From a virus (taxonomy: Duplodnaviria > Caudoviricetes), in the IMG/VR virus record IMGVR_UViG_3300042009_000023, positions 25,357 through 89,356 of that record: a stretch of DNA of 64,000 bases. The stretch is one strand, 5' to 3'. Positions 17,015-61,257 of the stretch are shown piece after piece; position 1 is the first letter of the stretch, and each line of letters opens with the position of its first letter. A program made the translations under genes and the position numbers. The notes below the pieces were generated by a model. That model was not told the origin of the DNA. It worked only from the letters and a program-made list of their open reading frames with translations, and made no database searches.

Positions 17015-18454
17015 ATGGCTGGAGTAACAGATGCTGGCTTTGTTATTAAAAGACTTACTGAAATCTACGGAAGCAAAGCCGCTCTAGCTGTACAGTTGTT
17101 TCAGGATCTTGTGGCTGTCGGTGATATCGTAGATACGGGTCCAAGTTCTATTATCGGACGATTGATTGCTTTAGATTCCCCAAGCGAAGCAGACCTCTGG
17201 GAAGCCGCCCAAGAAGTCTATGCAGCCTTTGACCCAAACTCTGCAACAGGTATTGCTCTCGACAACCTTGTAGCTTATGCGGGCATTACCCGCAAAGAAC
17301 AAACATTTACAACTTCCTCTATTCTTGTAGCTGGCGACACTAACACACTAATCCCTGTAGGACAGACTGTAAGTAGCTCTACAACAGGGGAGCAATTCAC
17401 TACAGTTGGCGCTATTTCTCTATCTCCAAGCAACGCTAGCGGCATCACCGTATCAGTAGTCACCTTACAGAATAGCACAGCTTACACCATCACTTATGCC
17501 AACACAACCACCACTAACACCATCACATATACATCTGATGCTAGTGCTACTGTTGCTGAAATCTTGGCTGGGTTGCAAAGTGTTATTGCTGGTGCTCATC
17601 CTAGCCTAGTATCCTCTGTTGTTGGCACAACCCTTATAATTGATCGTGTTGATATCTTCCAAACTGTAAACTTCACTACTTCAGTTAACCTTGGCATTAA
17701 CAAAGTAAGAACAGTTGGTGAAGTAGTTGCTATAGAATCCGGTATTATTGAACAGCCTGCAAACACCATTGATACCATCCTCACACCAATGCTTGGTTGG
17801 GATAGTGTAATCAACCCAATTGCAGCCACTCCCGGTGAAGATCGAGAGACAGACGAACAGCTTCGTCTTAGGTTTCGCAATGGTAAGTTTGACCGTGCAA
17901 CTAACACACTAGATGCTATTTACTCTGCTCTTATCAATCTTGATAACGTCAGTGAAGTGACTATCTATGAGAATGACACAAGTGTCGTAGACGGTAATGG
18001 TGTTCCTGCACACAGCTTCCTCCCAATTGTTTCTGGTGGTTTGTCTACAGACATTGCTAATGCAATTTGGGATAACAAGCCTGTTGGTATTTTGAGTTAT
18101 GGGAACACTACAGTAAGCATCTCTGATATCCAAGGTTTCCCTCACGATGTTAGTTTCTCTAGGGCAGACCCTGTAGTTGTTTATATTAGTATGGACATTA
18201 CAACAGATGTTAACTTCCCGGCAAATGGGAACGATGCCATCAAATCGGCACTACTGGATTACTTCACTGTGAACTTTGGTACTGGCGATGATGTAATTTA
18301 CAGCCGTCTGTATACGCCTATCAATAGCATTCCGGGCCACGAAGTTAACAGTCTATATATTGGAACTTCTCCTAGTCCTACTGGAGTTGTTAATATTCCA
18401 ATCAGCTTCGATAGCATAGCCAGTCTCAACACCAGTAACATCACCATCACCTAA
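17015..18454 (+). CDS. Baseplate J-like wedge protein
   Basis: ATGIALDNL...GITR, GEDRETDEQLRLR, ENDT...GVPAHS, KPVGI motifs. Confidence 0.85.
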   Translation: MAGVTDAGFVIKRLTEIYGSKAALAVQLFQDLVAVGDIVDTGPSSIIGRLIALDSPSEADLWEAAQEVYAAFDPNSATGIALDNLVAYAGITRKEQTFTTSSILVAGDTNTLIPVGQTVSSSTTGEQFTTVGAISLSPSNASGITVSVVTLQNSTAYTITYANTTTTNTITYTSDASATVAEILAGLQSVIAGAHPSLVSSVVGTTLIIDRVDIFQTVNFTTSVNLGINKVRTVGEVVAIESGIIEQPANTIDTILTPMLGWDSVINPIAATPGEDRETDEQLRLRFRNGKFDRATNTLDAIYSALINLDNVSEVTIYENDTSVVDGNGVPAHSFLPIVSGGLSTDIANAIWDNKPVGILSYGNTTVSISDIQGFPHDVSFSRADPVVVYISMDITTDVNFPANGNDAIKSALLDYFTVNFGTGDDVIYSRLYTPINSIPGHEVNSLYIGTSPSPTGVVNIPISFDSIASLNTSNITIT

Positions 18455-18465
18455 AGGAGAAATAA

Positions 18466-19356
18466 ATGTCTGAGATTTCTCCTTTTGAGATTCAAGATTA
18501 TCTAGAAGTTGCCCGCTCACGAGTGACGGAGCAGTTCAAAGATAAACAGGTCTTTGATTTTTATCTCCAACTCCTCCTCGGCGGAAAGATTGAACTTCAA
18601 GAAGTCTTCCGTCAACTTATGCAAGAGCGCTCTATTGACACTGCTGTTGGCGCTCAGTTAGATATTGTTGGTGAGATTGTTGGTCAACCAAGAGAGCTTA
18701 TTGATACAGCTCTCTTAACATACTTTGCTTATCTTGGTTATCCAAATGCTCAATCTTTCGGTGACTTGGATAACTCAAGTGTCGGTGGATATTACAGAGG
18801 AGTTGATGATCCTCTTGCTGGTAATACACTTTTAAACGATGAGCAATACAGGCTTTTTATCAAAGCCAAGATTATCAAGAATAATACAAACGCTACACCT
18901 AACCAGATACTTGATTTTATTAAGTTCGTATTTGGTAGTGATGTTAACCAACTCGTTGAAGAAGGTGATGCAGCTTACACTTTGCTTATTGGTAAAGAAC
19001 TTACTGATTTTGAGAAAGTGCTACTGACGTATGTGAGCTATTCAAGTGGTTATCCTTCTAGATTTGTTCCAAAACCTATTGGTGTAAGAGTTAATTACGG
19101 GACATTTATCTCTGGGGGTGCTTTTGCATTCCAAGGGGTTCCGGGTGCTAAAGGGTATGGTGATCTTCTCTCAGGTACGTTTGGATATGGCTTAGGTTAT
19201 GGGATGTCTTACGGTGATAGCGATTATGGGTTGGGTATCCCTACTTGGTCTTACACCTATGATGGCTCAACTTTGTATGACGGTATTTTCGATTACATTT
19301 CAATCCCCACATATGACGGAAGTTTTGATGGTGGTAGATATGCCTCTTTGCTCTAA
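18466..19356 (+). CDS. Baseplate wedge/fiber-attachment protein (DUF2612-like)
   Basis: IDTAVGAQLDIVGEIVG, LNDEQYRLFIKAKI, PKPIGV motifs; Gly/Tyr-rich C-terminus. Confidence 0.75.
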   Translation: MSEISPFEIQDYLEVARSRVTEQFKDKQVFDFYLQLLLGGKIELQEVFRQLMQERSIDTAVGAQLDIVGEIVGQPRELIDTALLTYFAYLGYPNAQSFGDLDNSSVGGYYRGVDDPLAGNTLLNDEQYRLFIKAKIIKNNTNATPNQILDFIKFVFGSDVNQLVEEGDAAYTLLIGKELTDFEKVLLTYVSYSSGYPSRFVPKPIGVRVNYGTFISGGAFAFQGVPGAKGYGDLLSGTFGYGLGYGMSYGDSDYGLGIPTWSYTYDGSTLYDGIFDYISIPTYDGSFDGGRYASLL

Positions 19357-26107: not shown

Positions 26108-26170
26108 TAAATCGAACTTCCATAGAAGACACATTGACTACGCCATTAGTCAAATCTCAGACACACCTTC

Positions 26171-26201
26171 AGCTCCCTTCCTTACGGTCGGGAGCTTTTT
26201 G
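26171..26201 (+). terminator. Terminator ending the late/lysis operon
   Basis: AGCTCCC-N12-GGGAGCT followed by TTTTG. Confidence 0.75.
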
Positions 26202-26312
26202 TTGCTTAAAATAAAGCAAAAGTAAAGGTCTTTCTATTTATAGGATTCAATTCTACAAGCCACGGTTTACGTGGCCTCCAGAGGTTCACTGTGGCAAGTA
26301 AGTCAACAGTAA

Positions 26313-38571: not shown

Positions 38572-39240
38572 TTAAATAGTTTCTAGATTGTTATCTAATT
38601 GATAACGAATTTTAACAGCTTTACTATAAATTGCTTCAACAAGACTCTGGTGGTTTTCAATGTCTGAGTGCCTAACAGCATCTTGCAAAACATCTAACTT
38701 CTTTTCTTGCCAAGCTCTGTGTGCCTCCATCGGAGTATCAAACAAACCAAGATACTGCTCACACTTACCAATAAATTTACCTGTTTCTTTGTGAAGATTT
38801 ACGCCTATTGGATATTCACCTCTCACAGAGTTACAAGAAATCAAGATAGTGTTAATCCAATTTGGAACGAACATGCAATTTTCTTTTGAGTAAGATTTTG
38901 AATCTGGATTAATTAAATCTTTATCTAGAGCCCAATATCTACCACTTCTGTCTTTGCTCGTGTATCCAAACTGATTCTGACACCATTCTGTGAAGTCTTG
39001 ATAACCTCCAAACTCGTTGTCGGTACCTGTGTAAGTTGGGTATTTGTTCCAATAGGGTTTCTTGCACCTTGAATTTACATTATCCCAGAGCAAGCTTGAA
39101 CGAGTAACTCTCCGCACATATACGTCACCCTCAACTATAGACTTTCCTTTACACCACAGACCGCTATCATCTTTGAAATCTGATACATTAAGAATTTTTA
39201 CAGTATTACGCATAACTACACTCTCTTGAGAATGGACCAT
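38572..39240 (-). CDS. HNH homing endonuclease
   Basis: WDNVNSRC, FTEW, LDKDL...YSKENCMFVPNWIN, YPIGV, YLGLFDTPMEAHRAW. Confidence 0.82.
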   Translation of the reverse strand: MVHSQESVVMRNTVKILNVSDFKDDSGLWCKGKSIVEGDVYVRRVTRSSLLWDNVNSRCKKPYWNKYPTYTGTDNEFGGYQDFTEWCQNQFGYTSKDRSGRYWALDKDLINPDSKSYSKENCMFVPNWINTILISCNSVRGEYPIGVNLHKETGKFIGKCEQYLGLFDTPMEAHRAWQEKKLDVLQDAVRHSDIENHQSLVEAIYSKAVKIRYQLDNNLETI

Positions 39241-40958: not shown

Positions 40959-41510
40959 TTATTGGGTTTGTACAGCGGTATTTTCAATTTCTTTTCTTGC
41001 AAACTCAAAAAGCTCCCAGCTACTACGTCCATTGAACACACTAGAAATCGTTGTACGTGGGAAGTCTAGCATAATTGCAATCTCATGTACACCCTTTCCT
41101 TGATGTGAAAGTAAAGCAATTTCACAAATTTGAGCTGGTGTTATCTTACGGTTAGTCTTAGGACGATTTGCATTAATCCGTCCAGCCTCAATACCATCTG
41201 CTGTGTTTTGCTTCTGTGTAGTCCAGTACAAATTATCAACAAAATTGTTAGCTCGTGTATGATCCTTGTGTCCAACTTGAGGTAGTTTATCAGGATTCTC
41301 AAGGAATGCAATAGCAATCAAGCGATGTACATAACGAATTGCGACATTACTTTTATCTTTCCTCTGAAGCCCTACAATTTTATACCCTGCACCATTATCT
41401 GACCAGCTCAAATATTTCTTTTGTTGTAGGTCAAACACTCGTCCATGAGTGCTAATTGCGTATCTGTCTTGTACCAAATCAATTTGAATCGGTTTCCACA
41501 CTTCTTTCAC
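40959..41510 (-). CDS. NUMOD4-HNH homing endonuclease
   Basis: EVWKPI...YAISTHGRV (NUMOD4); VHRLIA.AF...VGHKD...NN...NL.W (HNH_3). Overlaps the polymerase 3' end. Confidence 0.88.
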   Translation of the reverse strand: MKEVWKPIQIDLVQDRYAISTHGRVFDLQQKKYLSWSDNGAGYKIVGLQRKDKSNVAIRYVHRLIAIAFLENPDKLPQVGHKDHTRANNFVDNLYWTTQKQNTADGIEAGRINANRPKTNRKITPAQICEIALLSHQGKGVHEIAIMLDFPRTTISSVFNGRSSWELFEFARKEIENTAVQTQ

Positions 41511-43662
41511 AATTCTTACCTTGTTTATCAGTTACATCCTCCGACACTGCTTCAATTAGTTTAGATGCCTGATCAATGTAATATTTATAGTCAACTCCCC
41601 ATGAGAAGTCATTAATGTTATTGCATGTTTTAACGTTCCAATCTGTATCAATACCAAGCCTGCGATACTCACCACCCTCTACCAAAGGTGGCATGATTTT
41701 AATCAATTTACCCCCTTCTTTTGCCGGATAATAACGGCAAATGTTCTGCTGTGGAATGTCCTCACCATTCTCAACAATAACCAAACTGCTACTGCGTGGC
41801 ACTTTCGTGCGTAACATAAAGTCAAACTTATTCTCATGTAGACGAATAAACTCTTCGAAGTCAACACCATCAATAAGATGAGCCTTCACGGCCATTGGAA
41901 TCACCATCGCTGAATGATTCTTGTGCCACCCAAGTTTATCGAAATCCATAAACTCATATGCACCCTTGAGTTTCACCTTGCCAGACTCAGTTACTGAGAT
42001 GTAATTGTTAACGTCCCGGATAAACATTTGACTATAGTTGTCTCCCTCCATTTGAAGTTTTGTCAAATCCTCCCACCACTTCACCCACTTATCAGCCTCA
42101 TCGAACATTTCTATATCAATGACATACTCAAAACCATCAGTGTTACACATGATAATCCGAGCATTACAATGATCAATCAGCTTTTCCATAAGCATGCACA
42201 GAGAAAGCTGACCACCGATTGTAATAGCCATCGTGTAGGCTGGATCAAGCAACGGACTGAACTCGTTGTTACTATCCCCGTAAACACCATTGAGTGCCAG
42301 CTTCAGAGCCGCATTAGCTGCTGATCCTTTCGGTGTTGCTTTGCGTTGTTCGTAAAGATCAGAATACACCTTACAGAAGGTCTTACCCAAGTGCTGTGGG
42401 TAAATCTGGTTAGCAATCGCCATATTTGGATAATAGCTGGCAACGTCAAGAGTTCGAATCTTTCGCTTCTCAGTACTACGGATAGTACCTTGTGTTGCGC
42501 CATGAATACCACCAACACCATAGTCATAACGAAACCCGTTAATCATAACATTCAAAGTTTCAGCAACATTCCAGCACCAATAATAACTCTTAGCTCCCTT
42601 TGGTGATTTAAGCTCTTTCTCCTCAATCCAACCCATCGGTTGTTCTTTACGCTTCTCAGCGATAACTTCTTCACATGGGATGTATCGTTTGTTCTTTTTA
42701 TCTACAGGATCAGACAGCTTCTTTTTCTTTACGACCATTTCAGCATACTTGGCAACATCCCCAAGTTGATGCTCCATCAAATCACTGAATACACCTTTAG
42801 TCTCAGTGATGACTTGATCTTGAAACCACTTGTGCACAGCTTGAAACTCTGGACGATCAAACTTGATGTATGGAAATAAGCAATCCTTGATCACAATCTT
42901 GTCTCGCTTAGTTTGACGTACTTCCTTACCAAACTCAGTTTTCCTGTAACAACTACCCGGAGCTTCTTTCTCCAGTGTACGAATGAACAACTCTTTACCA
43001 ATCTTTGTATCATTAAAGTTGGTGCAATCAAATCCAAACTGTTCCGTCAGATCAGCACGAAGCTTTAGGTTCTCATACGAATACCAATAGAACTTCAGAG
43101 TTTCACTAACGTCATGTTTATTGTATTTAATGAGTACGTCTTTCTGAGCATCATCAAGCACTGTACCAACAGGATAAGGAAGATCCTCAATGTTGATAGA
43201 ACGCATGTTGTACTCAAGCATCTTCAACGAGGTTGAGCGAGCTTTGTTATCAAAGTGATGAACCTTGAACAAATCAACCTGTGGAATCACCACATCTTTT
43301 TCTTTGATTGCTGAACCAAACTTATTTTCTTTACTTGAGTTAATAAGTTTCATTGCGACATCGTAAAGCTCTTTAGCTGTGACTTTCAGCTTCTTATCAG
43401 TACCATGAACCTTGCGGGCTTTTTGCAAGATATGGTGAATAACCGGATAGTCAAAGTTATTGTTGTTGAACCCTACAAAACGATGACCAGCAGATTTCAC
43501 CTTACGGAAGAAATCAAGAAGGTCTTCTACTTCATTTTTACGATCACTGATTTCAAAGGCTCGCATGCCTTTGCCGTTTGAATATACAGCAGCGAACGTA
43601 AAGGTATTTGGATAAGTTTCAATATCAAAAATCCAATCCCCCTCAAAGAATTTCTTTTCCAA
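41479..43662 (-). CDS. DNA polymerase, family B, with 3'-5' exonuclease
   Basis: ExoI DIETY, ExoII GFNNNNFD, ExoIII YNKHD; pol motifs DVASYYP, KLALNGVYG, NTDG. Confidence 0.88.
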   Translation of the reverse strand: MEKKFFEGDWIFDIETYPNTFTFAAVYSNGKGMRAFEISDRKNEVEDLLDFFRKVKSAGHRFVGFNNNNFDYPVIHHILQKARKVHGTDKKLKVTAKELYDVAMKLINSSKENKFGSAIKEKDVVIPQVDLFKVHHFDNKARSTSLKMLEYNMRSINIEDLPYPVGTVLDDAQKDVLIKYNKHDVSETLKFYWYSYENLKLRADLTEQFGFDCTNFNDTKIGKELFIRTLEKEAPGSCYRKTEFGKEVRQTKRDKIVIKDCLFPYIKFDRPEFQAVHKWFQDQVITETKGVFSDLMEHQLGDVAKYAEMVVKKKKLSDPVDKKNKRYIPCEEVIAEKRKEQPMGWIEEKELKSPKGAKSYYWCWNVAETLNVMINGFRYDYGVGGIHGATQGTIRSTEKRKIRTLDVASYYPNMAIANQIYPQHLGKTFCKVYSDLYEQRKATPKGSAANAALKLALNGVYGDSNNEFSPLLDPAYTMAITIGGQLSLCMLMEKLIDHCNARIIMCNTDGFEYVIDIEMFDEADKWVKWWEDLTKLQMEGDNYSQMFIRDVNNYISVTESGKVKLKGAYEFMDFDKLGWHKNHSAMVIPMAVKAHLIDGVDFEEFIRLHENKFDFMLRTKVPRSSSLVIVENGEDIPQQNICRYYPAKEGGKLIKIMPPLVEGGEYRRLGIDTDWNVKTCNNINDFSWGVDYKYYIDQASKLIEAVSEDVTDKQGKNCERSVETDSN

Positions 43663-43707: not shown

Positions 43708-45462
43708 TCAAAAGTCAACCATATGTGCTGGAATTTCTAGACTTTCCACCGATGGTGGCTCATCCATCAGGCTTTCTTCAATGTATGGATCAGAGGTCGC
43801 AAACATATGTGTAGTCGCACCGTCATAACGCAACCATCCAGCATCACCAGTGTTACCAGTCCGACGACACTTAACAAGTTGCAGCTTAGTGGCTGACTTT
43901 TTAATCGGACAAGGGTTCATCTTATCACGACTGATCAAAATTGTATTGAATGCAATTTGATTCAGACTTGAGGAACCCATTAATTGGTATTCCGTTACAG
44001 CGTGTGGATTCTCTTCAGAAGGTTTTCTCATGTGTGAAATTGCTACTACACAAGTATCTGTCTCCTTTGCAAACTTCAAGAGTGTATCCATGAACTCAAT
44101 GATTGCGCCGTTGTCGCTACTGTTCACACCAGCTTGAACGGGATCAATAACAATTACATCACAGTTCTCAGCCTTCGCCAGATAGTTAAGTTTATCAAAA
44201 ATCTCAGCAGTTGAAATACTACCTTGGTGGTCAACATAAACGAATTGATCTTTCTTTGCAAGGTTCTCAAAGAAACGATTCTTCAATGCTTCAATGTCTA
44301 CGTTCTCACGGTTAACTGTCCGCAAGTTCATACCAGCATCAAGCGACAACAGATCACGTACAACTTCACGTTTAGTGCCTTCCAGATACATCGCACCTAC
44401 TTTGAACTGTGTGTTCTCAATGAGAGAATAGACCACGTTGTTAACAATCGAGCTTTTACCAATAGATGTCAAAGCACCAATAATCGTGATTTCACCTTTT
44501 TCCATGCCGCCGTTCATCATTTCATTCAAGTGTGACCAAGACGAAGGAAATGGAATTTTTACGTTATTGTCTTCACTTTCAAAGTCATCCCACATTTGAC
44601 TCAAGTGCAGAACATCAACACGACTGAACGGAGTAGCTTTCCAGAAGAGTTGCTTAAGCTCTGCTGTACGACCAGTTTTAACCATATCTGAGGCATCTTT
44701 AACCCCTTGTGGAAGCTTTGCAATGAATGCCTTACCCGGAGTAAGGAGACGAGCAGCTTCTTCTACATACTTCTGTGCAGATTCGTCTTGATCAAACGAA
44801 AGGATTACTTTAGAAAAACTGTTGATGTATTCAAAGTTCGCCTTGAACTGTTTGATAATACTACCATCACCACAAGTCACACTAACACACGGTGTCCAGT
44901 ATTCTACACCGTCTTTCTTGGAGTAGAGAGCTTGCGCAAATGCCAAAGCATCTTCTTCTCCTGTGGTGATTACCAGATACTTTTGACCAGCTTCAAAGAC
45001 AGATTGACCAAACAGTTCGTTAGTTGCCTTAGTGCTACCAATCCCAACGAAGTCTTTAGGATTCAAACGTTTCTTAAAGCCTACGATCTTACCATCAGAT
45101 GTAGACGGATAATAACGAGCTGTCACGTCAAAGCCATTTTCAACCTCTGTGTGTACGCCATACTTGGTGCTTACGGGTTGACCAATACCACGTTCTTTCC
45201 AGCCACGAAATGGGATTGCTTGAATGTTTGTAAAGTCTACTACTTCGGACACTTTATGTTTCCCCTCTTTAATCTTAACTCCCACTTCTTCTAGTTGGGA
45301 ATGATTGAAATAATTTGTGCATACAAAACAGTATGCATCATTAACCTGTTCACCGTCAATCTCTTTATTGTAGACTGCCATCCCATCAGACGATGAGCAA
45401 TCATCTCCAATACAGGCAGCATGGTACAACAACTCTCCGTCTGGTCGCTCTTGTTTACTCAC
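43708..45462 (-). CDS. Primase-helicase (T7 gp4-like)
   Basis: N-terminal Zn-binding C/H motif, TOPRIM GEEDALA and FDQD, Walker A ALTSIGKS, VIDP, ISHMRK, KCRRTG. GTG start after GGAG. Confidence 0.9.
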   Translation of the reverse strand: MSKQERPDGELLYHAACIGDDCSSSDGMAVYNKEIDGEQVNDAYCFVCTNYFNHSQLEEVGVKIKEGKHKVSEVVDFTNIQAIPFRGWKERGIGQPVSTKYGVHTEVENGFDVTARYYPSTSDGKIVGFKKRLNPKDFVGIGSTKATNELFGQSVFEAGQKYLVITTGEEDALAFAQALYSKKDGVEYWTPCVSVTCGDGSIIKQFKANFEYINSFSKVILSFDQDESAQKYVEEAARLLTPGKAFIAKLPQGVKDASDMVKTGRTAELKQLFWKATPFSRVDVLHLSQMWDDFESEDNNVKIPFPSSWSHLNEMMNGGMEKGEITIIGALTSIGKSSIVNNVVYSLIENTQFKVGAMYLEGTKREVVRDLLSLDAGMNLRTVNRENVDIEALKNRFFENLAKKDQFVYVDHQGSISTAEIFDKLNYLAKAENCDVIVIDPVQAGVNSSDNGAIIEFMDTLLKFAKETDTCVVAISHMRKPSEENPHAVTEYQLMGSSSLNQIAFNTILISRDKMNPCPIKKSATKLQLVKCRRTGNTGDAGWLRYDGATTHMFATSDPYIEESLMDEPPSVESLEIPAHMVDF

Positions 45463-45524
45463 GCTCTTCTCCCCTCCAACACCCTGCAAAGAATATTAAT
45501 CAAATTGCTTCAAGAATAGCAAGA

Positions 45525-48609: not shown

Positions 48610-48652
48610 TTTGTCTCTCCTTACTATTCAGTGGTTCACCTCAGATACACCA

Positions 48653-48681
48653 ATCCTACCCGTCACCTCCACACCTGTCAA
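48653..48681 (-). promoter_or_regulatory. Leftward sigma70 early promoter
   Basis: TTGACA-N17-TAGGAT on the minus strand, A at +7. Confidence 0.75.
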
Positions 48682-48749
48682 GGATAATTTGTAAAATTAC
48701 GCACTGATTTAAAAATATTCTCTAGGCGATCTATTCAGGGAGAATCTCC

Positions 48750-48814
48750 TTGGGCAAATTCATTTGGTAAATTTATTCAGCAGATTTGTCTAGCAAATTT
48801 GTTTGGTAGATTTA
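48750..48814. repeat. Five in-phase tandem 13-bp repeats, consensus TYYRGYARATTTR
   Basis: TTGGGCAAATTCA / TTTGGTAAATTTA / TTCAGCAGATTTG / TCTAGCAAATTTG / TTTGGTAGATTTA. Confidence 0.75.
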
Positions 48815-48849
48815 TCTACACTCTGTCAGAAGATTTTTGAAGGGGGTGC

Positions 48850-48878
48850 TTGACAGATGTTGGTGATAGAGGTAAGCT
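48850..48878 (+). promoter_or_regulatory. Rightward sigma70 early promoter
   Basis: TTGACA-N17-TAAGCT, A at +7. Confidence 0.7.
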
Positions 48879-48905
48879 GTGTGGAAATCAATAGGAGGAA
48901 GCAAC

Positions 48906-49172
48906 ATGAACAAGAAAGAATTTATCAGTTGGGTTGAAAGCTTACCAGAAGACTTTGAAGTGTTTCCTATTAGTGCCTCTGAAATCACGGAGGAATCAAG
49001 TCCTTGGGTTTCTGACTACAGATCTGTAGGCACGACTTTTCAATCTGTCTATAAAAAGAATGTTCGTACAAATATGAAACTGGACGTAACCTTTGAGGGG
49101 GAGGTGTCTGGTGAGTTTAAGCGTGACCAGTTTGGTGTTGAGCAGTGGGCTAATATTCGGAGGGTTAAATGA
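48906..49172 (+). CDS. Hypothetical early protein
   Basis: ATG after AGGAGG; MNKKEFISWVESLP start. Confidence 0.6.
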   Translation: MNKKEFISWVESLPEDFEVFPISASEITEESSPWVSDYRSVGTTFQSVYKKNVRTNMKLDVTFEGEVSGEFKRDQFGVEQWANIRRVK

Positions 49173-49390
49173 AACAAATCACAGCAGAAGATGTACGCCT
49201 ACTCCAGAAAGAAACTGGTGAGGGGATGATGGCTTGTAAGAAGATTCTCGTGGAGAGGTATAAGGCTGAGGAGAAAGCAGAGATGGTCAAATCTATTGAG
49301 GAAATCAAATGGCAGTTGAAGTATTTTAGTGACAGGGATGTTATTGAGAATATTGTTGATGTGTTGGATTATTTGGTGAGACGATCTTGA
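49169..49390 (+). CDS. Small protein with an EF-Ts N-terminal (UBA-like) domain
   Basis: ITAEDVRLLQKETGEGMMACKKILVE aligns with EF-Ts [26 protein letters not shown]. Confidence 0.75.
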   Translation: MKQITAEDVRLLQKETGEGMMACKKILVERYKAEEKAEMVKSIEEIKWQLKYFSDRDVIENIVDVLDYLVRRS

Positions 49391-49601
49391 CAGGTAAATC
49401 TCCTGAAACCACCCAATAAACAGTGAATTCAACCTTGTGTTTGGAGGGCTATGTGTGAGATTATGGTTGTCTGGATTCAGTGATTTGGCTTGACTTTAGA
49501 AATTGTCTCAGGAAGGCAAATGGCTGTAGCCCTTGTGGTGTGCGGCCTGTAGCCTATTTTATTATTAATTACTCCTTATATAGAGAGTGAGGTGTGAAGG
49601 G

Positions 49602-50933
49602 ATGGAAGATATAGAGGAAGAAGGTTGGAATACGTTAGAGATAGGAGAACCGAGATACGAAGTACTAGAAGTTAATAAGATTGGGTATGATCCCACGAAT
49701 ACAAGATTGTTAATCTATGATATTAATTATCCTCGCTCTATAACAATACAATGTAAGTCTCTAGGTTATAAAGATACTCAAGTATTAAGTTGTGTTATCT
49801 ACAATCTCATCTCCTGTCTTCGTAAGAACAGGAAGCTTGTCTATTCCAGAGATAAATACGAGAAGAATAGAAGCAAGAAGAAGATAACAGCCTATAAAGT
49901 GATGAAAGTGGTTGACTGGCTTGAGAAAGAGGGCTATGCTACCAACTACATTGCACCACCTATCCAAAATAAGGATGACAGACAAGTGAGCTATATCATT
50001 CCAACCCTCAAATTTGTAGAACAGTTCTGTGATCTTGCAGAAGTTCAGCGTATGGCCGAGTTGGCATATCAAGAAGCCTATGCATACATTGAGCTTCGAA
50101 ATGAAGATAAAGAACCTGTATTATTTCGTAATACAAAGCAAACACAACGACTTGAAAGTGTTGTCAAGAAAATTAATATTCTAAATGACATCTGCACAGT
50201 GCGAGATAAAGAAGGAAATGTTCTAAACAACTTCTATTGCCGTGTATTTAATGGTGACTTTGGCCACGGTGGTCGATTCTATCGTGCTGATGTTCTCCGA
50301 TTGCCACACAGCGAAGGTCGTCTAGGTCGATATGATATCACTATCAACGGAAATCCCGTGGTAGAAATTGATTATGGTAATCTACACTTTCGCATAGCTG
50401 CTGTCCGTGAATATATTGATTTGTCTGAAGTGGCAAGTGATGTGTATATGGGCATTCTGGATGCAGAGGAAAAGACAGAAGCTAACCGTGCAATTGTTAA
50501 ACTGGCAGTCAACATCATGTTTAATTCACTTGATGATCGTAAAGCTAAGCAAGCTATTCAGAGTGAAATTAACCTAAAATTCAAGGATAATCAAGACCTT
50601 ACACTTCGTACAGGAACAGAAGTGTTCAATCGAGTTAAACAGGCTTATCCTCAATTTGATTCTCTGTTTTGCAATGGTGATGGGTACGGCTCAGTCTTGC
50701 AGAATTATGACAGTGAGTTGGCCGCCTGTGTGCTGGATGTGATGTCTGATAAAAATATTCCTTGCCTTCCTATTCACGATTCGTTTATAGTTGAGCGACA
50801 ACATCAGCGAACACTTGAAGAAGTGATGGGCGAATGTTTTAGAAAGTTGTTTCAAGTGGACGTTCCTGTACCAGTTGGTGTTGGTTACAGGGATGAGATC
50901 GGTCAAGTGCAAGAATATAAAATTATTGTCTAA
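49602..50933 (+). CDS. Compact T7-RNAP/PolA-fold polymerase-like protein
   Basis: GGRFY, VEIDYGNLHFRI (motif A), RAIVK (motif B), LPIHDSF (motif C). ATG 49602 follows GAGGTG. Confidence 0.7.
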   Translation: MEDIEEEGWNTLEIGEPRYEVLEVNKIGYDPTNTRLLIYDINYPRSITIQCKSLGYKDTQVLSCVIYNLISCLRKNRKLVYSRDKYEKNRSKKKITAYKVMKVVDWLEKEGYATNYIAPPIQNKDDRQVSYIIPTLKFVEQFCDLAEVQRMAELAYQEAYAYIELRNEDKEPVLFRNTKQTQRLESVVKKINILNDICTVRDKEGNVLNNFYCRVFNGDFGHGGRFYRADVLRLPHSEGRLGRYDITINGNPVVEIDYGNLHFRIAAVREYIDLSEVASDVYMGILDAEEKTEANRAIVKLAVNIMFNSLDDRKAKQAIQSEINLKFKDNQDLTLRTGTEVFNRVKQAYPQFDSLFCNGDGYGSVLQNYDSELAACVLDVMSDKNIPCLPIHDSFIVERQHQRTLEEVMGECFRKLFQVDVPVPVGVGYRDEIGQVQEYKIIV

Positions 50934-56933: not shown

Positions 56934-57140
56934 ATGAGCGGCCAAGTAATGTGTTTTTGTAAAGCTTGTCAGGGTCGAACTATAGGGTTAAAGACTGGTT
57001 TGTCTTTTGGTGCCCACCTATTTAATTGGCTCCTGATTGTGTTGACAGGGGCGTTATGGATCGTTCCCTACATCCTGATTGTAGCTGTGAGCGGGTCTGT
57101 TCGTTGTACTAAGTGTGGAGGTAAGTCAAAGCAGCTATGA
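56934..57140 (+). CDS. LITAF-like Zn-ribbon membrane protein
   Basis: CKAC, then a hydrophobic hairpin (HLFNWLLIVLTGALWIVPYILI), then CTKC. Confidence 0.55.
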   Translation: MSGQVMCFCKACQGRTIGLKTGLSFGAHLFNWLLIVLTGALWIVPYILIVAVSGSVRCTKCGGKSKQL

Positions 57141-57877
57141 GACGTAAATACAATATTGGAGATGTGTGGCCCACAAAATGTGGGGTAGGTGTAAGAATTA
57201 TTAGCAAAGATACGCCAAACCAGAAGTTGACGGTAAAATGGTTGGACGAATATGGCTACGAGTATGAAGTTTACCAGTGTGCAGTATTCAGACAAGAACT
57301 TAAGAACCCTTATGAAAAGACTGTGGCCGGTGTAGGGTATATAGGTTTAGGCGATCACAGATCGAATCCTTTGAAATATAAGGCTGAGTATGTGGTTTGG
57401 GCGGGTATTCTGGACCGTGGATACGGAGATAAGGTCAGATTGAACCGACCGGGGTATGACGAAACGATTGTTGAAGATGTTTGGCACAACTTCGGTGGGT
57501 TTATTGACTGGACTAGATCCGCTATAGGTTGGGGTAAAGAAGGTTGGCATGTCGATAAGGATCTCCTTGTAAGGGGGAATAAGTCCTATGGTCCAGATGT
57601 TTGCTGCATGTTACCGGGTAAGATAAATTCCAATCTGTGGATACAAACAAAAGAAGGTGACACACTTCCCGGCGTAATTAAAATTGGAAACTCATATCGA
57701 GCCAACACAAAACTCGGGGAAGTAACGCAGGCTCGACACTTTAAAACAGAACAAGATGCTTTCTCATTCTACAGGCAAACAAAAGAGGCTTATATTAAAT
57801 ATCTTGCGGAGCAGTACAGGGACGAGCTAGATCCAAGAGCATATCAAGCTTTAATGAGTTGGGAAATTTTACCTTGA
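57137..57877 (+). CDS. HNH homing endonuclease
   Basis: KNPY.KTVAGVGYIG, W..IL.RGY, WHNF..F..W, VDKDLL.RGNK.Y.PDVCCMLP..IN, LPGV. Confidence 0.82.
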   Translation: MRRKYNIGDVWPTKCGVGVRIISKDTPNQKLTVKWLDEYGYEYEVYQCAVFRQELKNPYEKTVAGVGYIGLGDHRSNPLKYKAEYVVWAGILDRGYGDKVRLNRPGYDETIVEDVWHNFGGFIDWTRSAIGWGKEGWHVDKDLLVRGNKSYGPDVCCMLPGKINSNLWIQTKEGDTLPGVIKIGNSYRANTKLGEVTQARHFKTEQDAFSFYRQTKEAYIKYLAEQYRDELDPRAYQALMSWEILP

Positions 57878-58588: not shown

Positions 58589-59546
58589 ATGACTGTTAAA
58601 TTTAAACCTAATGTAACCCTTGCAAACGCAGCAAAGCAGATCGAAAAGCGTATGATAGCAGTAGGTAAAGAACGAGACAAGCTTGACGAACTAATCGGTG
58701 AGCTTGAACAGTTGAAATGGAATTGTGAGGAAGCTTACGACAACCTTCAACGTGCTCGTGATGCGCTTTCGGAGCTTGTATAACATGAACATCAAAACAA
58801 ACGACATTGTAAAGGCACGTATCTCTGATACATCCTCAGACGAAACAGCCATTGTCCTGACAACATATGGCAGCGTAGGGAACAAGCCTTCACAAGTCTG
58901 CCTTCGCTCTCCGATTAATGGGAAACGTTATTGGAATGTTAGTGATTTGGAGGTGGTGCAATGAACACACAATCAGAATGTTTCAAGCTTGCTTTCCTGT
59001 TGATGTCTCAGAAGAAACAAGCTAAGCTCTATAAACAAGATGGGCAATGGTATTGTGTTCCTTCGGAACAGCATTGTGAGGAAGTCAAATGAGTCAGTAC
59101 ACAACAGAATCATTCCAGAAATATGAACGCAAGCGTTCTACTAAGCGTTCTAAGCAATACAGTGACAGCAACACAGAGCGTAAATCCTGCAAGAAAGATT
59201 CTTATAAAGTAGCACGAGATATGAAACGGCAGTGTGAGGATTAGACATGAACTATCAAGAAGGTAATCTATACAAGATCTCTCACGACTATTACAACGAT
59301 ATAAAGCTAACCTGCATATGGGTAGAGTATAGTTTTGTCTATTTCAAGCTCCCTAACAGCACGAGTATAGGAGCTGATTACAAGCTTGAGCTTAAGACAA
59401 AGAAGTTGTATCGGTGGAATGATAAGTGTACAGGATGGGATACGATAGAGAACACGTTGTCTGAGTATACGGATGAAGACATCTGGAGCAGTAGGACAGG
59501 GAATGGTGGTGGGGATGGTTATTATAGTGGGATTGGGCAAAACTGA
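58589..59546 (+). other. Small hypothetical genes (58589-58783 coiled coil; 58785-58964; 59247-59546 and shorter ORFs)
   Basis: ORF track. Confidence 0.5.
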
Positions 59547-59581
59547 TAGAATCTTTCAATGAATAAAGACTAAAATAATCG

Positions 59582-59609
59582 TTGACTAGTGTTCTGGTTG
59601 CTGTAGAAT
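59582..59609 (+). promoter_or_regulatory. Sigma70 early promoter
   Basis: TTGACT-N16-TAGAAT with an AT-rich upstream region. Confidence 0.65.
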
Positions 59610-59658
59610 TGGTCTCAAGAGGGAAGCAAAAGCTTCTCAAGCCTTGGAGCTACAGACC

Positions 59659-61257
59659 ATGAACAAATTCACTAATGATTCCAACATCCTCTCCCTTCAA
59701 CACAAACTTGCTGATGCTCGTGCAAACACTCGTGAAGCTGAGAACACTGGCTGCTCCGATACTCTCATCTGTGAATTGATGGATGCTGAAGATGAAATTA
59801 CCTCTCAGTTGTTGAAGCTTGGTTGCCATCGTCGAGACTGCTGATAGTTAACAATACAAGCCACCTAGAGCGGCTTTCTTTATGGAATATACAAATGTGG
59901 ATTAAAATAAATCTCTATGCCTGGACACACTCTGAACATGGTTGGTATATAGGTAAGTGGTGGACTTTATGTGGTAAGAAAAAGACTTACTTCAGTACAT
60001 ATACAGATAGGCAGGCTAGAGAGAAAGGAGAGAATATGGCTACATTTAATAGCCTGAAAGAAGCAAAAAAGAGCTTTACACAAGAAGCTTGAAGGGTTAC
60101 AATCTGTACATACCCAACCAATACAGAGTAAATATCATGACCTACATCGAACGCTACACAGAAGCTCAAGCAATCTCTCTGGTAGCAGAGTTGAAAGGTG
60201 AAGGCTACAATGCCTACTTCACTAAGAATAATGCTGACTCTTTCACTGTTCAATACTGGAGCTAAGACTATGTTTACCACGATCTTATACGTATCGCTTT
60301 GCTTCTCTAACACTGACTGTGTAGCCTATGAACCACAGACTTGGAAAGCTAATTCTGTAGCTGAACTGAACAAAGACCTAGAAGCATGTGCTAAAGAAGA
60401 ACGTAAATACCTGTCTAATGTTATTGGCACATACAGAGAATCTGACTGCTACGTTATTGAGGCTAAATGAAATGATCATCTCCCTGATAGCTTTCTACAA
60501 AATCTTTCTTCAAGACAGCCAACCAATTAAAAATAAGCCTGTCTACCATCGGACATGGAAAGACGAAGTAGAAGGCTATCCAGCCTCTAGCTATGCTAAG
60601 AGTTTACAGATGGTTATCCACTAAAGTGGTTTATTGATGCTTGTGAGCCAGGCCAAAGCTGTGAATCACTCAAAATGCCTGGATGGACGTGTGACAGATA
60701 AATTCCTTAAAGTAATTGAAGAAAAGACTAGACAGGTTGTGAATGTGGTCCTATACTATCCATACAGAAACAAAAACAGTCTTTAGACACCCTCTCAGGA
60801 GTACACGAAATGAGCATTTACACCAACCCAGATCGTAAATTCGCTACTAACTCGGTATGCCGTAAAGATGCAATCTCTTTCGTAAAAGTGGTGAATCAAT
60901 GCTCCGAAGAGAATGCTACACACTTCGTTGATTCTCTTGTTCTGGAATGTCAGCAAGAAGCTATCAAGCTGGGTAAAGTGACTAATAAAGTCTTTCTAGT
61001 GCGGGATAGCATCAATGAAGTAGATGTCTATATCGACACATGCTACTACATGTTTGACAACTAAACACTATTCAATTGAAGCCCCTCTAAGGGGCTTTGG
61101 AGCACATCTAATGAAAAAGCTTAATGTATCCGTACCGATGAACATCAATGGGCTCATTCTATGGTCTTATTCATTCAGAGCTTATGATTATGAAGTGTTC
61201 CTTATGTTGGGGGATTATGGGTGGTATTCTCCTGTGATCTTTGATCGTACCTTTTGA
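59659..61257 (+). other. Small early hypothetical genes (59659-59844; 59895-60092; 60270-60470; 60810-61064; 61111-61257)
   Basis: ORFs with GGAG SDs, separated by AAGCC...GGCTT hairpins. Confidence 0.55.

Follow-up and report, generated by a model that had tools for sequence, protein, structure and literature searches.

The gene P0001 and its protein

The 64,000-nucleotide window analysed here comprises bases 25357-89356 of the complete 89,356-bp genome of a tailed phage (Caudoviricetes; IMG/VR record IMGVR_UViG_3300042009_000023), which has 127-bp terminal repeats. Within it lies P0001, a gene for a 443-residue protein that we assign with high confidence to the divPolA2 family, and that consists of an N-terminal winged-helix-like domain followed by a stripped-down family-A polymerase core. 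Upstream of the gene are a conserved DNA dyad, a short conserved box and, further away, an array of 13-bp repeats (Table 1). The strand opposite the open reading frame (ORF) is crowded with stop codons, and the ATG at 49602 is supported as the start by 443-residue orthologues that also begin with MEDxE.

An initial annotation of this DNA, made from the letters and the ORF translations, had described four polymerase-like motifs in the right-hand order. All four were located in the translation, in that order, as GGRFY (residues 223-227), VEIDYGNLHFRI (254-265), RAIVK (296-300) and PCLPIHDSFIV (387-397), and because they are conserved across the family they stand far above chance. Sequence comparison with known proteins was less informative. 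The only PHROG match of the protein is the unnamed phrog_4756, and a Pfam scan at E ≤ 10 returned zero matches, DNA_pol_A and RNA_pol (PF00940) included. No polymerase was among the matches of sequence searches of the Protein Data Bank (PDB) run with phmmer for the single protein and with hmmsearch for two profiles, and hhalign comparison of the family profile with T7 RNA polymerase (RNAP) and T7 DNA polymerase (DNAP) gave probabilities of 1.7% and 0.4%, neither significant. The relationship to polymerases is therefore visible from the fold alone. Ten longer family members (530-784 residues) showed no informative fused domain in Pfam.

Table 1 Features of the P0001 locus and related elements (window positions)
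Feature	Position	Strand	Remarks
divPolA2-family gene (P0001)	49602-50933	+	Open frame; 443 residues; phrog_4756; 226 close and at least 7,002 distant homologue clusters
N-terminal winged-helix-like domain, residues 34-161	49701-50084	+	Model, VIA-align, Foldseek, weak profile matches
Compact family-A polymerase core (palm and small fingers; thumb of at most 2 helices)	50085-50930	+	VIA-align, Foldseek
GGRFY hairpin	50268-50282	+	R225 in 135/135; strand 224-227 in model
Motif A, E255-x-D257-Y-x-x-L-H262-x-R	50364-50393	+	E255 and D257 in 135/135; H262 in 129/135
Motif B (O-helix), R296-x3-K300-x3-N304-x3-N308	50487-50525	+	R296 in 131/135, K300 in 135/135, N308 in 130/135; helix 293-308
Motif C, H392-D393-S394-F395	50775-50786	+	D393 in 135/135; H392 in 134/135
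29-bp dyad CTGTAGCC-N13-GGCCTGTAG	49524-49552	.	50 bp upstream of the start codon
Box CCTTATATAGAGAG (consensus YTATATGRTAGRAGAG)	49574-49587	+	Between dyad and start codon; aligned in 23 upstream regions
Third dyad copy	26253-26281	-	Convergent junction of late and replication blocks (genome 51.6 kb)
PolB	41479-43662		phrog_1252, E 3e-179
gp4-like primase/helicase	43708-45489		phrog_239
Five tandem 13-mers	48754-48818	+	Upstream of a rightward promoter; 784 bp upstream of the polymerase gene

A family-A core behind a winged-helix-like domain

An AlphaFold2 model of P0001, built from 25 homologues (mean pLDDT 84.9, pTM 0.80), was compared with 48,161 chains using VIA-align and with the PDB using Foldseek. 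The top 21 VIA-align rows were family-A polymerases covering residues ~157-440, the best match being an apicoplast polymerase (9qsc_A; Z 15.4, root-mean-square deviation (rmsd) 4.0 Å, 246 residues aligned). Scores were similar for Pol nu (Z 15.1), Aquifex Pol I (14.5), the Klenow fragment (14.1; rmsd 4.4 Å, 244 aligned), yeast mitochondrial RNAP (mtRNAP; 13.9) and T7 DNAP (13.5), and lower for T7 RNAP (12.4) and N4 RNAP II (8.0); every one of the 17 chains with Z ≥ 9 belongs to family A. Foldseek returned 73 matches at E ≤ 1e-3, down to 4e-6, all family A among the matches listed. The family-A palm and fingers that had been expected from the motifs are thus present in the model. Judged from the model and the ranges of the matches, the core consists of a palm and small fingers, with no canonical thumb, although helices 146-159 and 179-197 could form a bihelical one. 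As also anticipated, no 3′-5′ exonuclease domain was seen; the N-terminal third is winged-helix-like instead.

The initial annotation had further emphasized a likeness to T7 RNAP. This holds for the fold and for the HDSF sequence of motif C but not for closeness, as the model is no nearer to T7 RNAP (Z 12.4) than to DNA polymerases (13-15). Fold scores do not separate DNA from RNA polymerases. We conclude that P0001 is a real, half-size relative of DNA polymerase I and T7 RNAP and is probably active.

The structural matches also lend themselves to two other accounts of what P0001 does. The best of them (apicoplast Pol, Pol nu, Aquifex Pol I, Klenow and Pol theta) would suit an accessory DNA polymerase that has no site specificity and serves repair, gap filling, translesion or recombination-dependent synthesis, a role that we consider unlikely. 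The matches to yeast mtRNAP and T7 RNAP would suit a minimal single-subunit RNA polymerase for middle or late genes, in which the winged helix recognizes promoters and the two paralogues of this genome (see below) serve two promoter classes; this, too, seems to us an improbable role.

Residues 34-161 folded alone gave a model with pLDDT 88. All 50 of its 50 best VIA-align matches were winged-helix proteins (best Z 7.5, rmsd 2.8 Å, 77 aligned), and Foldseek matched it to MarR-type regulators with probability 0.97-0.99 and E of about 0.02. Weak profile matches pointed to PadR (E 0.07) and the C-terminal winged helix of RPA32 (E 0.1), and in the VIA-align comparison of the full-length model the rows below the polymerases were winged-helix proteins over residues ~45-150. 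Several modest signals, each with Z below 8, taken together make a winged-helix fold likely. Recognition of the divPolA2 N-terminal domain as winged-helix-like, on the strength of these models, is new here; no similarity was found for it in the previous description of the family (Yutin et al., PMC11348598).

Conservation and peculiarities of the active site

Conservation was assessed in an alignment of 135 diverse representatives with 22-43% identity to P0001. R225, R243, E255, D257, K300 and D393 are invariant, whereas N192, G224, D280 and Y282 are conserved in at least 90% and H262, R296, N308, H392 and S394 in more than 95% of the sequences. The palm in the model and the invariance of D257 and D393 in all homologues aligned agree with the initial annotation, which had tied the case for a polymerase to a palm domain bringing together two conserved aspartates. 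Such conservation across the 135 representatives indicates selection on catalysis. As judged from the alignment, the two-metal site is retained in D257 and D393 together with the family-specific E255, and the predicted template- and nucleotide-binding residues R225, R296 and K300 are retained as well.

This pattern bears on the idea that P0001 is a catalytically dead polymerase fold whose sole function is to regulate by binding DNA or to provide a scaffold for initiation, as an autorepressor at the dyad would. The dyad does have a promoter-like region on one side and the gene on the other, an arrangement shared with autoregulated initiators, and the canonical Tyr-Gly of the O-helix is missing. 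With the catalytic positions invariant or nearly so, however, we regard a dead enzyme as very improbable.

The best local hhalign alignments, from comparisons whose overall scores are not significant, place PVHDSF of the family on LIHDSF 809-814 of T7 RNAP (motif C) and IDYxxLHxR on IDASGLELR of T7 DNAP (motif A). The latter sets H262 opposite E480, which in T7 DNAP is the steric gate against ribonucleotides. This position, D+5 of motif A, is occupied by His or Trp across the family and by Gly in T7-type RNAPs. In motif B, the initial annotation had rightly remarked that RxxxK (R296, K300) is kept without the YG: the Tyr-Gly position is occupied by N308-S309, with Asn in 130 of the 135 sequences. 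The O-helix therefore keeps its Arg and Lys and has Asn at both aromatic positions (F762 and Y766 in Klenow; Y639 in T7 RNAP). In Klenow, E710, F762 and Y766 are the sugar- and base-selection residues of PolA DNA polymerases, and these positions are taken here by H262, N304 and N308.

These substitutions cut across both accounts drawn from the structural matches. The bulky H262 opposite the steric gate would favour an accessory DNA polymerase, and yet the PolA residues for sugar and base selection have all been replaced. Motif C is identical to the HDSF of T7 RNAP, which would favour an RNA polymerase; against this, the D+5 residue of motif A is His or Trp rather than the Gly of T7-type RNAPs, the O-helix Tyr has become Asn and the Pfam RNA_pol model does not match. 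The active site thus appears complete, with sugar and base selection that, as far as the alignment indicates, is unlike that of every characterized family-A enzyme. The preference for ribonucleoside or deoxyribonucleoside triphosphates (NTPs or dNTPs), and with it the sugar type of the product, is not predictable from sequence.

The divPolA2 family and related polymerases

P0001 does not found a new family; its family is known from an in silico study by Yutin et al. (2024, Virol J 21:200; PMC11348598), who named it divPolA2 and described it in 110 barbaviruses and other Caudoviricetes. There it occurs beside a regular PolB, sometimes as 2-3 paralogues, and was suggested to be a repair DNA polymerase or an RNA polymerase, so that both alternatives introduced above have been raised before. 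Membership is supported by hhalign matches to gp034 of barbavirus Barba1A (probability 98.5%, E 1.5e-15, 310 columns) and to the ICP1 protein ADX89516 (98.0%, E 2e-13), by the same weak tblastn match in 115 of 115 barbavirus records, and by a BFVD match to a Barba31A protein (E 6e-18). In one barbavirus record the homologue is labelled 'DNA polymerase', which agrees with an accessory DNA polymerase. Like the prototypes from Rheinheimera barbaviruses, P0001 has ~435-450 residues, a PolA-like palm with catalytic residues and an N-terminal globular domain, lacks an exonuclease and a canonical thumb, and coexists with a regular PolB, often with 2-3 paralogues per genome. It differs in sequence, sharing only ~23-26% identity with the barbavirus protein.

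A profile search of 1.84 billion representatives found at least 7,002 clusters (50% identity) at E ≤ 1e-3 and 4,208 at E ≤ 1e-10. The family is therefore large, has no Pfam model and is present in a model phage, ICP1. In the literature, the name divPolA2 was found only in Yutin et al. and its preprint, and no biochemical study was found. The initial annotation, which knew of no biochemical characterization of such a protein in a myovirus, is accordingly borne out for divPolA2 itself; it had overlooked the in silico description and a precedent for an A-family primase, CcPol-MP.

The conserved residues of P0001 fit the description of TV-Pol, a minimal A-superfamily core whose members are predicted primase-polymerases (Iyer, Abhiman and Aravind 2008, Biol Direct 3:39; PMC2579912), a family to which P0001 may belong. 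In line with the TV-Pol definition, P0001 has an Arg hairpin (R225), two palm aspartates (D257, D393), a fingers Asp (D280) with RxxxK (R296, K300), and no nuclease. The bihelical thumb that is also part of the definition could correspond to helices 146-159 and 179-197 of the model. Unlike TV-Pol loci, neither this locus nor those of five relatives showed a D5-like helicase, resolvase, integrase or transposase nearby; the TV-Pol N-terminal domain is predicted to be all-helical (PMC2579912), whereas that of P0001 is winged-helix-like; and the family profile did not match Microcystis phage Ma-LMM01, a named TV-Pol carrier. With tblastn, replicons of Rhodobacterales gave matches in Thioclava (E 7e-16) and Paracoccus (E 2e-7), taxa among those listed for TV-Pol (PMC2579912). 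The Thioclava electrotropha plasmid pTElox9 (L041; 34925-35860) encodes a 311-residue homologue consisting of the polymerase core only (tblastn E 7e-16), which adjoins an IS21 element, an AbiE toxin-antitoxin pair and a DNA methyltransferase, a mobile-element hot spot as described for TV-Pols. A role as a plasmid replication protein was considered and rejected, as there were four weak tblastn matches only, all in large replicons.

CcPol of SCCmec, which has been placed in TV-Pol, carries out de novo priming from dNTPs, together with its partner MP, at a site that it prefers (Bebel et al. 2020, eLife 9:e55478; PMC7581432). Like P0001, CcPol-MP is an A-family polymerase whose thumb is shortened. 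It initiates DNA chains at a preferred site of a mobile element, and it is the sole precedent from biochemistry for the role proposed below. The two differ in that CcPol keeps the ribonucleotide-excluding residues of Pol I and part of an exonuclease domain, needs the separate OB-fold partner MP and is targeted through the helicase Cch2, whereas P0001 has a fused winged helix. No conserved partner gene was seen downstream of P0001, where the genes vary among close relatives.

T7 RNAP, mtRNAP and N4 RNAP II share the palm and fingers fold with P0001, together with the HDSF motif C. In contrast to them, P0001 is half their size or less, has neither their promoter-binding N-terminal domain nor a specificity loop, and carries His in motif A and Asn in place of the O-helix Tyr. 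T7 RNAP and mtRNAP also prime replication at origins.

A conserved dyad and two paralogues at strand-switch points

In most of the relatives sampled, at 41-96% protein identity, the region upstream of the gene contains a dyad, CTNNAGSC-N9-13-GGSYTNNAG, followed by a T-rich stretch and then by the box YTATATGRTAGRAGAG, which is possibly a -10 region or part of a leader. The spacing between dyad and box falls into two classes, of about 15 and about 25 bp, one helical turn apart. Of 36 relative loci of 4-11 kb, 25 carried a single occurrence of a strict form of the dyad pattern, in each case 50-120 bp upstream of the polymerase start; in whole genomes the dyad is rare, and a reversed-pattern control gave zero matches.

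The present genome holds three copies of the dyad, one before each of two polymerase paralogues and one on the minus strand at 51.6 kb, all at strand-switch points. The strict pattern detects only the copies at 74.9 and 51.6 kb; that of the second paralogue, a dyad-related motif about 95 bp upstream of P0269 (genome 17600-17635), was found with the shorter motif GYGGCYTGTAG. P0269 lies at genome positions 17720-19081 (+; L004:1423-2784), 7.6 kb before the start of the window, has about 450 residues and keeps GGRLY, ELDY..H, RQLAK and YHDS. It is the first gene of a long plus-strand block running into the structural genes. Each of the two paralogues is found at a divergent strand switch, at 17 kb and 74 kb, and the cumulative GC skew reaches a minimum at both points. 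Among five related complete genomes, four have two copies about 60 kb apart, and in relatives the polymerase gene is again the first, or among the first, after a divergent junction.

The possibility that the dyad acts as an RNA hairpin was rejected. RNAalifold found no consensus structure, and in a hand-drawn 10-pair helix 74% of cells were paired with a covariation of 0.154, compared with a shuffled mean of 0.196 (492 of 500 shuffles equalled or exceeded the observed value). Since covariation lies below that of shuffled alignments, the complementarity stems from a conserved, near-palindromic DNA sequence. In sequence, the dyad looks like a protein-binding DNA dyad, and the predicted winged helix of P0001 itself is an obvious candidate for its binder.

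At the third copy, reading along the minus strand, the dyad is followed by TATAAATAG and, about 50 nt on, by a hairpin AGCTCCC...GGGAGCT (window 26170-26300). This element may encode a small RNA or terminate transcription in both directions.

A possible role in starting replication

According to PHROG profiles, the window also encodes a PolB and a gp4-like primase/helicase, as had been noticed initially, together with a gp2.5-like single-stranded DNA-binding protein, an exonuclease, ribonucleotide reductase and thymidylate synthase. The replisome (primase/helicase, gp2.5-like protein and exonuclease) is T7-like but has a PolB. Because a separate PolB replisome is present, P0001 is probably not the replicase, in agreement with the initial annotation. 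Neither an initiator nor an RNA polymerase turned up among the 20 window proteins scanned.

We tentatively prefer to read P0001 as a site-targeted initiating (priming) polymerase. The winged helix would bring the enzyme to specific DNA sites, the candidate target being the dyad that closely precedes its own gene and is found again at strand-switch points. There, the thumbless core would make a short RNA or DNA chain, and the replisome of PolB and gp4-like primase-helicase would take this chain over. P0001 would then do the same job as T7 RNAP at the T7 origin and CcPol-MP in SCCmec. We favour this reading because a DNA-binding type of domain is fused to the core, a gene-linked dyad lies at strand-switch points, the T7-like replisome comes without an initiator among the proteins scanned, and CcPol-MP and T7 RNAP provide precedents. 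A further reason is a coincidence in ICP1, whose 494-residue homologue ADX89516 is encoded at 59,327-60,811 of ICP1_2004_A. For this phage, Barth et al. reported early bidirectional theta replication with a coverage peak 'near the 60kb position'. This agreement in position is no more than suggestive.

Several points weigh against a role in initiation. The ICP1 peak is broad and coarse and comes from another isolate (ICP1_2006_E), whose coordinate frame may differ, and the dyad was not found upstream of the ICP1 or barbavirus homologues, which sets the clade of P0001 apart. The GC-skew extremes coincide with gene-strand switches and are not independent evidence of origins. The dyad could be a plain promoter, operator or terminator of the gene. 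In addition, the gp4-like protein already provides the phage with a primase domain of the DnaG type, divPolA2 genes have variable neighbourhoods (PMC11348598), and the activity, DNA binding and phenotype of the family rest on prediction.

The genome context bears equally on the two alternatives. An accessory DNA polymerase, listed as a repair enzyme by Yutin et al., would leave unexplained the fused winged helix, the dyad tied to the gene, the placement at strand switches and the presence of two diverged paralogues per genome. For a minimal RNA polymerase, which the same authors had raised, it counts that each paralogue heads a long rightward gene block and that ICP1 has no known RNA polymerase and is thought to lack one. 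The 89-kb genome contains, however, no repeated promoter-like motif: no 12-mer occurs more than 3 times, and intergenic enrichment is confined to ribosome-binding sites and A/T runs. The sole shared element is the three-copy dyad, one copy of which lies at a convergent junction, and an enzyme without a thumb is poorly suited to the transcription of 20-35 kb blocks. T7-type promoters were not found in the 89-kb genome.

Extended from P0001 to its family, the preferred reading of a priming polymerase becomes a bolder proposal that we regard as rather doubtful: divPolA2 proteins would be self-targeting origin primases, in which the winged helix reads an origin dyad and the core starts the first chain for a T7-like replisome. 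They would thereby replace T7 RNAP in this role in the many phages, including ICP1, in which a replisome of this kind is accompanied by neither an RNA polymerase nor a known initiator, and two paralogues would mean two separately controlled origins. No initiator is known for the theta origin of ICP1, a phage thought to be without a polymerase able to prime that origin. If P0001 does start replication, it would represent a third way of making the first chain, after the archaeo-eukaryotic primases (AEP) and DnaG primases, and a naturally occurring minimal A-family polymerase that carries its own means of DNA targeting. If it is instead an RNA polymerase, its core of ~280 residues would be the smallest of its kind.

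The 13-mer array and neighbouring genes

The initial annotation had also pointed to a 13-mer array about 0.8 kb from the gene and to the intervening region, 48650-49600. The array is there, in five copies, and so is the gene, but the region is not all non-coding, since the array and the polymerase gene are separated by two small ORFs, each with a strong ribosome-binding site: 48906-49172 (+, 88 residues), with no PHROG match, and 49169-49390 (+, 73 residues), which matches an unnamed PHROG family only. The 13-mer is present in three copies in a relative at 96% identity, as two GAATTTATTC sites 21 bp apart in one at 80%, and as one GAATTTATT site in one at 88%; the sites compared (window 48754-48818, L010:1563-1601 and L007:3645-3675) all lie just upstream of a TTGACA box. 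The array therefore appears evolutionarily labile, as would suit an operator whose copy number varies. It was rejected as a conserved partner of the polymerase, because copies drop from five to three, two and one in relatives and because it sits upstream of other genes.

Three genes resembling HNH homing endonucleases lie in the window, at 38572-39240 (-), 40959-41510 (-) and 57137-57877 (+), with matches to phrog_953 and phrog_59; one of them abuts PolB. In the relative at 88% identity, genes with Gad2 and CapR Pfam domains follow the polymerase gene (L006:6343-6918 and L006:8342-8968) and are absent at that place in the window, which indicates that the accessory cargo of the early operon is variable.

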